Assembly (NCBI GenBank): GCA_043814605.1
Contig: JBDRJV010000013.1
Span: forward strand, 34,471 to 98,470
DNA: 64,000 nt
Direction of reading: 5' to 3'
Source: Candidatus Omnitrophota bacterium
GTDB lineage: Bacteria; Omnitrophota; Gorgyraeia; B26-G9
Positions 45,601-48,353 of this stretch are shown piece by piece. The notes under the pieces were generated by a model. The model was given only the letters and a program-made list of their open reading frames with translations. It had not been told where the DNA came from and did no database searches. Each line of letters starts with the position of its first letter. Position 1 is the stretch's first letter. A program made the translations under genes and the position numbers.

Positions 45601-48009
45601 TCACAATACCTTTATGAATTCTGCAATAACCATGAATTCACCTTCGTTATTATTTGGAATTATAATTGGAACATATTCTGGATTCAACGGTAATAATGTT
45701 ATCTCCTCATGTTCCCAAGTTCCATCTGAGGCATACTTTTTCTTACTAGAGTATTTCTTTACTGTATATTGTCCTCCCGTATCGACATCTGAAATACTAT
45801 TATGTTGGACCAAAATTATTTTATTGGCTCTTGAACCAACAACATTTGCTCTAAATACACAATAGCTACCCTCTGGAATTCTAGGTTCCATAGACTTCCC
45901 AACCACTTTAGAAACAAACATATTTTTATCTAATCGTAACCCATCGGCTTTAATCCACCCCTCAGGAGAAGCATCTGTTCCTCTGCCAAACAATCCGCAA
46001 GCTGCCTCAAGAGCATATACTGGCAAATATTCTTTATATTTAAGATTATTATCAATATCTTGCTCAATTTTATAGATTAATTCCTCTTCTTCTGTTACTA
46101 AATCTGAAAATTTTAGTGTTTCCTTATCGAAAATCGGCGATCCTTCTATCCGTGATTTAAAAAACCTTTCTGTATCTTTATCCATAAAGTAAACATAACA
46201 CCCCTTCATTCCCCGACTAAGCAAAACTCTGTAAGTGTTTTTCACTAATTCTGCAAATTTGTTTTTAGAACGTTTAACAACACTGTCTGAAGATTTAGAG
46301 GGATTACCTATCCATTCTTGCTTGTCAAAATTATATACTAAATCTTCACCAAAAATAACTCCAACATAGTCAAATTCAAAACCCTGTGCTGTATACACAC
46401 ATCCTACTTGATCAATGCCATTGGGGTCATATGCCCACAAAGAAGCCTTTGGAATACCTGGCGCCAAACGTTTAGCTTCCGGCTTAGCATCCCATGGTCT
46501 TTTATAATCCCCTACAATAACATCATTTTTTAACGTGCCATCTTCATTCGGAAGTGACCAGTCCCAACAAAAACCCGCTGTTACTCTTCCTGTAAACCCC
46601 CGAGCAACTTTAGTTCGTATGGCATTTTCTAGTTCAAGCGGATTAGAAAATATCTTGAAATCAAATTCTTCATGCTGATCCCAAATAACATGGGCAGTTC
46701 TTTTAATCCCCAAGGTATTGTTTATCCAGCTCACAAAAGCATCAGAACCATTACAACGAAACTGGGCTTCTAATGCATATTCATGAAGCTTAATCTTATT
46801 ATCACTTGCTATCTTCTTAATATAATCAACAGAACCTATTTCATTTGGGCGTACTACTTGGTCATCATCAATAAAAAATACCGAAACTTTTGAAGCCTTA
46901 AGCAATTCCTCAATTTGCGTCTTTTTAGATCTGCTTGAACGCGGCGTGAATCGACTATTACTTGTCTCGCGTATACGATGTGCTTCATCCGCGATTAGAA
47001 TATCTATAGCATTCTCCTCAGCTTGGCTATAACTGTTAAAGTATTTAAACTGCACCGATCCACGGATACCTATAATTTTTCGCAATGTTTCTGTGAATGC
47101 CTTCGAACCAGTAGCATAATGAGAATTGTAGCCTTTTAATAGCAAATCAGCCATTAAATTAATTGCTATAACCGACTTGCCAGTGCCTGGCCCCCCTTTT
47201 ACAACAATTATTGATTTTTGCTTATCCTGAAAGCTTCTCTTTGCGCATGTTAAGACCGCATCGTAAACGATAAGTTGTTCATCCAACAGAATATATTCTG
47301 TTTTATTTTTAACGACATTGCCTACATGGTCCATAAGTTTCTTATTTGGACGATATTTACTTTCTTCAATTCTCTGCAAAACATCTAACCCGTCACCGGT
47401 TAAAAGTCTATTACGCAAATAGTTCGTTAGCCTTTCAACATCGTCAGCTGTAAATAATGGGTATCTCTCAAGAGAGTTTTGAAATTTATCTGAAAAAATA
47501 ACATCTTCGGAATAATAGTTGTAGTTATGTAAATAAGTGCAGGCGTTCAAAGCAACAGGATTATCTTCACTGTTAAATGCTGTATGAGTATCCTCTAGAT
47601 AGAGATGATATTGCCCAACTTGAACAGATGGATGCAACACTTCTCTCTTTGCGCCGCCAACCCATGTGAGTACTTCGTTATCACCATATGCTTCTTCGCA
47701 CTTCTCCCATTGTTTTAATTCCACAATTACTGCATTATCAGTTTTTTGCTGATCGCGGCCACAAATCATACAATCCAATCGACGAGATGTTAAAGGAAGC
47801 TGATACTCGAGCATTACCCCATGATCCATCAACTCGGCATATTGAAAAACCTGACTTATTGATCGCAGGGAATTACGCCAAGAATTAATTTCTGCAGGAG
47901 AAGGGTTATAACGGTAATATCCAAAAAAAGCATTTTTTAGTTTCTCAGCGATCTGATTGTGAATAGCATCTTGAATAAACTGTTTTGATGTCCCTGAATA
48001 AAGTCTCAT
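45601..48009 (-). CDS. PD-(D/E)xK nuclease-like N-domain + DUF2075-type P-loop ATPase (Schlafen-group-3-like) + C-terminal LexA-like S24 peptidase domain
   Basis: RLDCMI...VIVELKQW; GGPGTGKSVIAINL, ILIADEAHRI; C-term GKSMEPRIPEGSYCVF...ILVQ...TVKKY...LLPLNPEYVPI. Confidence 0.7.
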   Translation of the reverse strand: MRLYSGTSKQFIQDAIHNQIAEKLKNAFFGYYRYNPSPAEINSWRNSLRSISQVFQYAELMDHGVMLEYQLPLTSRRLDCMICGRDQQKTDNAVIVELKQWEKCEEAYGDNEVLTWVGGAKREVLHPSVQVGQYHLYLEDTHTAFNSEDNPVALNACTYLHNYNYYSEDVIFSDKFQNSLERYPLFTADDVERLTNYLRNRLLTGDGLDVLQRIEESKYRPNKKLMDHVGNVVKNKTEYILLDEQLIVYDAVLTCAKRSFQDKQKSIIVVKGGPGTGKSVIAINLMADLLLKGYNSHYATGSKAFTETLRKIIGIRGSVQFKYFNSYSQAEENAIDILIADEAHRIRETSNSRFTPRSSRSKKTQIEELLKASKVSVFFIDDDQVVRPNEIGSVDYIKKIASDNKIKLHEYALEAQFRCNGSDAFVSWINNTLGIKRTAHVIWDQHEEFDFKIFSNPLELENAIRTKVARGFTGRVTAGFCWDWSLPNEDGTLKNDVIVGDYKRPWDAKPEAKRLAPGIPKASLWAYDPNGIDQVGCVYTAQGFEFDYVGVIFGEDLVYNFDKQEWIGNPSKSSDSVVKRSKNKFAELVKNTYRVLLSRGMKGCYVYFMDKDTERFFKSRIEGSPIFDKETLKFSDLVTEEEELIYKIEQDIDNNLKYKEYLPVYALEAACGLFGRGTDASPEGWIKADGLRLDKNMFVSKVVGKSMEPRIPEGSYCVFRANVVGSRANKIILVQHNSISDVDTGGQYTVKKYSSKKKYASDGTWEHEEITLLPLNPEYVPIIIPNNNEGEFMVIAEFIKVL

Positions 48010-48353
48010 AATTTATTGTACTTTGTATGTTTACCTTTAGCTTTTTCGGCAGGATACTTTTTAGCATTTTTAAGTAATTTTTTGTCCATAGCATCAATCA
48101 AATTTATCCCCAAGTTATCAGACAACTCAAAGAGATATAATGCTATATCAGCAATTTCATCTTGAATTTTATCTTGATTATTCTTTGCGTATTCTTCAAC
48201 CTCCTGAATAGTCTTCCACTGAAAATGTTCCAGCAATTCCGAAGCCTCTAAAATTATTGAAACTGCCATATTTTTAGGATCATGAAATTGCATCCAATCA
48301 CGTTCATCACGGAATTTTTTTATTCTTTCAATAATCGCCTTTACTTCACTCAT
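48006..48353 (-). CDS. MazG-like nucleotide pyrophosphohydrolase
   Basis: EASELLEHFQWK...EIADIALYLFEL; 4-bp overlap with downstream gene. Confidence 0.7.
   Translation of the reverse strand: MSEVKAIIERIKKFRDERDWMQFHDPKNMAVSIILEASELLEHFQWKTIQEVEEYAKNNQDKIQDEIADIALYLFELSDNLGINLIDAMDKKLLKNAKKYPAEKAKGKHTKYNKL

Follow-up and report, generated by a model that had tools for sequence, protein, structure and literature searches.

Why should a nuclease-helicase end in a self-cleaving domain of the LexA type, and why should its gene be coupled to that of a MazG-like pyrophosphatase? The question is posed by two overlapping genes on the minus strand of a 64,000-nt stretch of a Candidatus Omnitrophota genome (assembly GCA_043814605.1, contig JBDRJV010000013.1, positions 34,471 to 98,470), here called the window, to which all coordinates refer. 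The downstream gene encodes an 802-aa protein, identical to the Candidatus Omnitrophota metagenome-assembled genome (MAG) protein P0001 at NCBI, in which four parts follow one another: a PD-(D/E)xK nuclease, a DUF2075/Schlafen-group-3 helicase of superfamily 1 (SF1), a disordered linker and a LexA-type S24 module. The best explanation we can offer, with a probability of roughly 0.4, is that of a mobile two-gene defence module in which self-cleavage, stimulated by RecA filaments on single-stranded DNA (ssDNA; RecA*), would detach a dimerising tail and turn the enzyme down. The parts of the module are the following:

48360..48365, minus strand: Shine-Dalgarno sequence AGGAGG, 6 nt before the start codon of the MazG-like gene (sequence read)
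48006..48353, minus strand: 115-aa MazG-like all-alpha NTP pyrophosphatase, assigned to the DCTPP1/RS21-C6 family (Pfam, PDB profile search)
45601..48009, minus strand: 802-aa nuclease-helicase-S24 fusion, its ATG overlapping the MazG-like stop (list of open reading frames (ORFs), Pfam)
47365..48009, minus strand: N-terminal PD-(D/E)xK nuclease domain, residues 1-215, with D79 at 47773-47775 and E97-L-K99 at 47713-47721
46180..47217, minus strand: DUF2075/Schlafen-group-3 SF1 helicase-ATPase, residues 265-610 (Pfam PF09848 SLFN-g3_helicase, E 3e-90)
47173-47196, minus strand: Walker A motif GGPGTGKS, residues 272-279
46978-46989, minus strand: DEAH motif, residues 341-344
46045..46143, minus strand: acidic, poorly conserved linker, residues 623-655 (pLDDT <50 for 623-645)
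45994..46026, minus strand: predicted LexA-type cleavage-site region LPVYALEAAC-G, residues 662-672 (114-homolog columns, hhalign to LexA)
45994-45999, minus strand: predicted scissile bond Cys671-Gly672 within AAC-G, residues 669-672 (homolog columns, hhalign)
45604..45936, minus strand: S24 catalytic and dimerisation core, residues 692-802, with Ser706 at 45892-45894 and Lys751 at 45757-45759 (Pfam Peptidase_S24)

The two ORFs overlap by 4 bp, ATGA holding both the stop of the MazG-like gene and the start of the 802-aa gene, and the genes are translationally coupled. A gap of 80 bp separates the ribosome-binding site AGGAGG from the stop of the preceding AbiEii gene, and a scan for promoters and terminators around the two-gene operon gave nothing better than shuffled controls. 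An earlier reading of this DNA, made from the letters alone and referred to below as the sequence-only reading, had proposed the ATGA overlap, a PD-(D/E)xK N-domain, a DUF2075/Schlafen-like P-loop ATPase and a C-terminal LexA-like S24 domain. The overlap is plain from the sequence, the domain calls hold on the evidence given below, and the motifs it had picked out by eye (D79, E97-L-K99, GGPGTGKS 272-279, DEAH 341-344 and GKSM 704-707) are all present, with TVKK at 749-752.

In the tail, residues 692-796 match Peptidase_S24 (PF00717) with E 1.4e-8 and 34.9 bits, above the gathering cutoff of 23.3, and alignment of the tail family to E. coli LexA with hhalign (92% probability, E 5e-7) pairs Ser706 with LexA Ser119 and Lys751 with LexA Lys156, and lays LP..AACG over LexA LP..VAAG. 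Ser706, Met707 and Lys751 are invariant in 114/114 tailed homologs, whose consensus over residues 662-672 reads L-P-V-Y-S-L-x-A-A-[A92/C22]-[G98/T12/S4], with Gly making up 86% of the last position. The predicted cleavage site lies 35 residues before the nucleophile Ser706, the spacing from A84 to S119 in LexA (numbering as in PMC9926225). The same architecture of ~800 aa, DUF2075 plus S24, recurs in more than 100 clusters at 60-87% identity. The Cys-Gly pair of the 802-aa protein is a UmuD-type site. When PDB sequences were searched with phmmer from a single sequence, be it the tail or the entire protein, only chance matches came back, so that a family profile was needed; with the tail-family profile all 17 matches were to LexA or lambda cI, weakly (E 0.03-0.8).

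By these alignments the tail is a complete LexA-type self-cleavage module that contains its own substrate, cleavage itself being predicted. AlphaFold models the tail with confidence (pLDDT 80-90) and linker residues 623-645 as disordered (pLDDT <50), the inter-domain geometry being unreliable at a pTM of 0.46; the linker shows no conservation among 120 homologs. So modelled, the protein has the layout of LexA, with a 650-residue enzyme replacing the helix-turn-helix (HTH) domain.

The same tail is found on many other nucleases. When 1.84 billion representative proteins were searched exhaustively with phmmer for residues 640-802, 1,687 clusters matched at E<=1e-3, 985 of them also at E<=1e-10 and 135 still at E<=1e-30, the lowest E values reaching 1e-50. 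Among the top 150 matches the tail is at the extreme C-terminus in all but ~5, on host proteins of 121-1,878 aa. Pfam Peptidase_S24 is also matched by 53/55 of the mid-size and 85/87 of the small tail relatives. The mid-size proteins (n=55) carry DUF2075 in 14 cases and ResIII in 12; other N-terminal partners are the Type ISP specificity domain, an HsdR-like C-terminus and Eco57I/MmeI Type IIG enzymes. Type I, II, IIG and III restriction enzymes as defined by PADLOC are represented among the tail-bearing proteins, as are AlwI, LlaJI, GIY-YIG, PLD and Mrr nucleases and DruE/MZB, McrBC-related, TnsA-like and Schlafen AlbA_2 proteins, and HTH-S24 repressors account for only ~10-15 of the small matches (n=87). 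The N-terminal partners of the tail are overwhelmingly DNA-targeting defence enzymes. Given that the Ser and the Lys never vary across these unrelated fusions, and that the A-A-x-G motif hardly does, selection appears to act on self-cleavage itself.

The enzyme that carries the tail in the window has the catalytic D...E-x-K of PD-(D/E)xK nucleases (D79, E97-x-K99) and a DUF2075/SF1B helicase core with Walker A and B, this core being confirmed by Pfam and Foldseek. A profile of the N-domain found nothing meaningful among PDB sequences, where a fold search was needed instead; with the ATPase core, Foldseek ranked SLFN11 first (7zel, E 1.3e-9), followed by RecD2, Dda, SLFN14 and Dna2. Matches of the helicase to the PADLOC systems PDC-S41, AbiO and Nhi are all partial, residues 236-468 aligning to positions 174-374 of the Nhi and AbiO profiles (E ~1e-14), which is the first helicase lobe only. 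Membership of PDC-S41, Nhi or AbiO was considered and rejected, a full-length profile match being absent. Because the Nhi/AbiO profiles cover residues 236-468 only, the 802-aa enzyme, judged by its sequence, shares the Nhi/AbiO design and belongs to a different family.

For relatives, one genome per species was scanned, which gave at least 599; 80 loci were kept, 74 of them with enough flanking DNA. The S24 tail is carried by 21/80 loci only. Proteins of ~624 aa that lack the tail are up to 82% identical to the query core, and on the core tree tailed proteins are scattered among tail-less ones. By these comparisons the tail is facultative, was acquired more than once, and has been gained and lost repeatedly. 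Two loci from Patescibacteria (L037, 8320 region, and L042) have a different, canonical LexA-type tail (GDSMNKAGINDGDLV...TIKEL) on the same core, which indicates an independent fusion, and the homolog P0111 has an XRE-type HTH tail instead of S24. Because of these two exchanges we regard the C-terminus of the nuclease-helicase family as a hotspot of regulatory-domain swapping. The tails are bacterial only (21/68 bacterial vs 0/12 archaeal loci, Fisher p=0.019), which fits a dependence on bacterial RecA and the SOS response.

The mechanism that we prefer would run as follows. The first gene would provide a DCTPP1-family pyrophosphatase acting on dCTP and/or 5-modified dCTP, and the second a nuclease-helicase of the Nhi/AbiO type that unwinds and degrades invading or replicating phage DNA, tethered through the disordered linker of ~35 residues to the S24 module. 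The tail would dimerise, as LexA, lambda CI and UmuD do. Once RecA* has formed, the tail would dock in the filament groove and Cys671-Gly672 would be cut, separating the ~650-residue enzyme from the dimerisation domain. The cleaved enzyme would have lost its dimerisation and would present a new ...AA(A/C)-COOH end, similar to that of cleaved LexA, which ClpXP reportedly recognises (Neher et al. 2003). Cleavage would be a built-in 'restriction alleviation', protecting host ssDNA and recombination intermediates during SOS repair. There are precedents for its elements. The groove of the RecA filament is bound by the S24 domains of the LexA C-terminal domain (CTD), UmuD and lambda CI (PMC9926225); HsdR of Type I enzymes is subject to ClpXP proteolysis, which gives alleviation on damaged or recombining host DNA (PMC4231737); and Nhi is a dimeric nuclease-helicase proposed to target phage replication intermediates (bioRxiv 776245), an attack by which host repair intermediates would be put at risk. 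The defence role, which the sequence-only reading had also favoured, is supported by the architectural homology to Nhi and AbiO and by the context of abortive-infection (Abi)-type genes.

As to the direction of the switch, we tentatively favour an off-switch over an on-switch, on four grounds. The core can evidently do its work with no tail attached. The tail is also present on restriction enzymes that are constitutively active and have to cut at a time when RecA* cannot yet exist. Type I enzymes are known to require alleviation through proteolysis once the host's own DNA is endangered. Finally, cleavage of LexA or CI inactivates by removing the dimerisation domain and leaves an ...AA-COOH end. 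The opposite direction is the strongest of the alternatives and a serious rival, though in our view less likely. Here the tail would hold the nuclease-helicase inactive until phage ssDNA and RecA* trigger self-cleavage and release an active, possibly abortive-infection nuclease, as UmuD is converted to UmuD'. The intact autoprotease module and cleavage site would suit such a switch, the Cys-Gly site is UmuD-like, AbiO has been reported to be toxic on a high-copy vector, and the module sits among Abi-type systems; RecA* activation of UmuD is established (PMC9926225). It was this activating, phage-sensing switch that the sequence-only reading had proposed. Its domain calls, the intact S24 site and the MazG adjacency stand, and neither of the two outcomes that it had named as refuting (a tail lacking the catalytic Ser and Lys and any S24 match, or a MazG adjacency not conserved) came about; cleavage as activation stays a conjecture. 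Orthologs that lack the tail, some of them as much as 82% identical, occur often, and the tail has been gained and lost repeatedly, so that the core has no obvious need of a safety catch; the same tail is found on classical Type I HsdR-like, IIG, III and ISP enzymes, which must cut before RecA* forms; and the disordered linker and low pTM of the model give no sign of autoinhibitory docking. These observations argue against a mandatory safety catch and in favour of an off-switch triggered by DNA damage, or of modulation.

Less probable still is that the S24 domain serves mainly to dimerise the enzyme for double-strand cutting or to recruit it to RecA-coated DNA, cleavage being slow, constitutive or incidental. 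Many Type IIS, IIG, III and ISP enzymes require two heads or collisions for cutting, and 16/114 homologs have a residue other than Gly at P1'. Dimerisation and binding to the RecA groove are, moreover, properties of the S24 domains of LexA, CI and UmuD (PMC9926225), and Nhi is itself a dimer (bioRxiv 776245). What this leaves hard to explain, other than by selection on cleavage, is the invariance of Ser706 and Lys751 and the retention of the cleavage motif over hundreds of unrelated fusions.

Several points weigh against an off-switch by RecA*-stimulated cleavage and against the defence module built around it. Autocleavage, RecA dependence and direction are argued from analogy, and we infer them together with the substrates of both enzymes and the anti-phage activity. 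The tail profile matches the sequences of solved LexA and cI structures weakly (E 0.03-0.8), though the Pfam and hhalign matches are significant, and P1' is Thr or Ser in place of Gly in 16/114 homologs. Every site of the LexA type yields an ...AA-COOH end by its nature, which is thus no independent sign of degradation. A pTM of 0.46 leaves room for autoinhibitory docking, S24 cleavage can activate, as in UmuD (PMC9926225), and the reported toxicity of AbiO in Lactococcus on a high-copy vector suggests that some relatives may need restraint. The archaeal absence of tails comes from 12 loci only. The PADLOC matches to Nhi and AbiO are confined to the helicase part, and an anti-phage role of this exact family is suggested by architecture and context.

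The second half of the question concerns the partner, in which two metal-binding motifs can be located:

48228-48248, minus strand: E36-x-x-E39(-x-x-E42) of the MazG-like protein
48147-48158, minus strand: E66-x-x-D69 of the MazG-like protein

The protein matches Pfam PF12643 (E 1.3e-19), and a profile of its family finds 4qgp (E 1.6e-33) and DCTPP1 (6sqw/2a3q, E 1e-32) in the PDB; E36, E39, E66 and D69 are invariant among 27 MazG-like neighbours. By homology it is a clear member of the DCTPP1/RS21-C6 family, and on the same ground it most likely hydrolyses dCTP and/or 5-modified dCTP. The 80 loci span many bacterial phyla and Archaea (Methanosarcina, Nitrososphaerota, Woesearchaeota) at 47-74% identity; a homolog from the cultured Lysobacter enzymogenes ATCC 29487 is at locus L064. 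A MazG-like gene lies directly upstream in 45/74 loci, its end no more than a few bases away from the nuclease-helicase start and often with the same 4-bp overlap, and is adjacent in another arrangement in ~11 more, for a total of ~56/74. The conserved unit, across Bacteria and Archaea, is the pair of MazG-like and nuclease-helicase genes. The MazG neighbour pointed out in the sequence-only reading has proved a stronger association than was proposed; as for the nucleotide-depletion-type effector seen in it, the MazG-like identity is borne out, in the DCTPP1 family, and depletion is one of several possible roles.

Around the pair, a conserved third gene was sought and none was found, the up- and downstream genes being highly variable. 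Relatives of 83-87% identity keep the pair intact in unrelated surroundings: one has an AAA-ATPase/RloB pair together with an HNH gene beside it, the other a second DUF2075 protein. At the latter type of locus, in an 83%-identical Omnitrophota relative (L082, 370-2343), a tail-less 657-aa DUF2075 protein stands directly upstream of the pair, making tandem DUF2075 paralogs. AbiL-like and HNH genes flank the module at locus L081. Recurrent facultative neighbours are HNH_2 endonucleases of ~300 aa, present in 16/80 loci (including L006, L015, L017, L023, L034, L041, L046, L050, L057, L066, L068 and L075). These have an N-domain without assignment, with a conserved EVNFWQPSG...PGEPFLFKL, and a C-terminal HNH_2 domain that matches PDB 6yex and TagI (6ghs), both of which we take to be modification-dependent enzymes of the PUA/EVE superfamily; the ~300-aa neighbour may be a modification-dependent restriction endonuclease. 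Helicase/PLD proteins containing DUF3427 neighbour the pair in 4 loci and C5-cytosine methylases in 3; DUF3427 enzymes beside DUF2075 NTPases were already noted by Lutz et al. 2019 (PMC6765204). Together with the DCTPP1 homology, the HNH_2, DUF3427 and methylase neighbours give only a hint of a link between the pair and modified cytosines.

Carriage of the module by phages was considered and rejected, since 50,697 phage records held only 4 weak matches; complete E. coli genomes held no homolog. That the pair might stand outside defence altogether, as a DCTPP1-like sanitiser and a repair helicase-nuclease made SOS-responsive by the S24 tail, is the weakest of the alternatives and quite improbable: DCTPP1 is a house-cleaning enzyme in mammals, the pair is very widespread with a vertical-looking distribution in Bacteria and Archaea (50-70% identity), many of its neighbours are housekeeping genes and the fold matches of the full model include the Dna2 nuclease-helicase. 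Against this, the pair occurs patchily and in part on plasmids, its neighbourhoods vary and its identity stays high between phyla and even domains, all of which speaks for horizontal transfer; the architecture equals that of Nhi and AbiO, whose role in defence is validated by experiment; restriction and Abi genes recur beside the pair; and the S24 tail family is overwhelmingly found on restriction enzymes.

In the window the module belongs to a cluster of ~10 kb, whose further features are context for it:

50315..50553, no strand assigned: direct repeat (~240 bp), right copy, directly after the terminator of the intron-split tRNA described below (repeat search)
48433..50089, minus strand: AbiEii/AbiEi toxin-antitoxin (Abi) pair (Pfam, PADLOC)
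43835-45405, minus strand: two adjacent hypotheticals (202 and 317 aa), directly downstream of the DUF2075-S24 gene (ORFs)
40625..41657, plus strand: overlapping gene pair of a nucleotidyltransferase (NTase; Polbeta/NTP_transf_2) and a HEPN protein, PADLOC candidate PDC-M05 A/B (E 1.4e-53 and 5e-18)
40313..40544, no strand assigned: direct repeat (~240 bp), left copy (repeat search)

The cluster comprises the PDC-M05 NTase/HEPN pair, which is an MNT/HEPN-type toxin-antitoxin or defence pair, the two hypotheticals, the module and AbiE. Of the neighbours named in the sequence-only reading, the AbiE pair is recognised by both Pfam and PADLOC, and the hypotheticals, described there as secreted, have signal-peptide-like N-termini and match nothing in Pfam or PADLOC. 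The direct-repeat copies, 96-99% identical and spaced by 10,002 bp, bracket the cluster. On the minus strand the repeat folds at -105.7 kcal/mol (z = -5.5 vs shuffles) and has a tRNA-like end, ...GGGGAGCCA; no Rfam family matched it. It is probably an undescribed structured-RNA gene, which may act as an att-like or recombination site. The DNA between the copies showed no integrase, and the idea of the cluster as a mobile island is therefore no more than suggestive.

Some observations on the repeat and its surroundings stand by themselves. On the metagenome contig Ga0265297_10257742 (L083, 560-1236), tandem related units of ~220 nt share a conserved core (GAAGCGGAGUGAACGGAGCGACCAAGUGGGAGCUCAAAUUUGC...GCAAAUUUAGUGAAUGUAGGGGAGGCUACGCAAU) and each ends like a tRNA in ...CACCA and has a terminator. 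In the window, the stretch at 42000-42900, which has no ORFs and is richer in GC, seems to hold more diverged copies, with strong hairpin/T-run terminators at ~42365-42400. The units look like members of an unknown RNA family that form an array downstream of the tRNA. At 50592-51247 on the minus strand lies a tRNA gene missed by ARAGORN, its anticodon loop split by a group I intron of ~570 nt, with the intron core at 50649-50926 (RF00028 of Rfam, 72 bits) and an HNH homing-endonuclease ORF inside the intron at 50875-51192; splicing in silico at 51215/50642 gives a canonical 76-nt tRNA-Thr(UGU) with CCA encoded.

In its broadest form, which we hold at a little under even odds, our proposal is that the tail is a portable RecA*-responsive proteolytic switch on ~1,000 restriction and defence nucleases, wiring a DNA-damage signal to immunity post-translationally and without transcription, be it as built-in alleviation or as a trigger on infection, and that an Nhi-like nuclease-helicase of pan-prokaryotic range has a DCTPP1-like dCTP pyrophosphatase as its obligate partner, possibly directed against phages with modified cytosines. 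How a chromosome under repair is protected from the cell's own immune nucleases has been worked out for no more than a few Type I enzymes (ClpXP), and infection sensing is known case by case; a self-cleaving LexA-type domain fused to the nuclease would, if the proposal is true, be a simple and general answer to both. With the tail modular on ~1,000 or more clusters, a result on one member would extend to many systems, and the tail could serve as a damage-responsive protein switch for engineering. The DCTPP1-like partner, in turn, would point to an unexplored link in Bacteria and Archaea between the chemistry of the dNTP pool, possibly involving modified cytosines, and nuclease-helicase immunity.

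Taken singly, defence proteins that join a nuclease to DUF2075, S24 autoproteases and MazG-like enzymes are well known; their combination and the recurrence of the tail on restriction and defence nucleases are, as far as the searchable literature goes, undescribed. A search of the searchable literature, including recent defence-genomics work and leaving subscription-only literature outside, found no DUF2075-S24 fusion, no DUF2075-MazG pairing and no S24 tails on restriction enzymes, and in the searchable literature no MazG-like or DCTPP1-like enzyme was reported as obligate partner of a nuclease-helicase defence protein. The partner resembles DCTPP1/RS21-C6 closely (E 1e-32, with E-x-x-E...E-x-x-D intact) and, by homology, would act on the dNTP pool as dCTP deaminase and dGTPase depletion systems do; depletion of dCTP, destruction of modified dCTP and pool sanitation are all candidate roles. 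Human Schlafen 11 and 14 (group 3), at ~10% identity, have an AlbA_2 RNase at the N-terminus where PD-(D/E)xK stands here, and lack both an S24 tail and a MazG partner.

Closer in design are Nhi of S. epidermidis (SERP2475; Bari et al., bioRxiv 776245), the Nhi-like proteins (Millman et al. 2022) and lactococcal AbiO, which likewise combine an N-terminal PD-(D/E)xK domain and a DUF2075/SF1B helicase in one polypeptide of ~600 aa, occur in defence islands and share the partial PADLOC match (E ~1e-14). They differ in that this match is limited to the N-terminal half of the helicase and leaves the nuclease domain of the 802-aa protein unmatched, and in that they are described as single-gene systems without an S24 tail, whereas the 802-aa family is coupled to a MazG-like gene.

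With LexA, lambda CI and UmuD (MEROPS S24) the tail has in common the L-P followed by an A-A-(A/C)-G site, the Ser in G-x-S-M 35 residues downstream, the Lys in T-V-K and a flexible linker between the module and the N-terminal functional domain. Unlike theirs, the cargo is a 650-residue nuclease-helicase and not an HTH domain, and the tail subfamily has an insertion of its own between the Lys and the next strand, with conserved Y753, S755, K757, W765 and H767. In its proposed logic the system would come nearest to the restriction alleviation of EcoKI by ClpXP (HsdR, PMC4231737), where proteolysis shuts down a helicase-nuclease post-translationally if the host's DNA is endangered. The protease of the EcoKI case works in trans, and what it senses is long-lived translocation, whereas here it would be built in and would sense RecA*.

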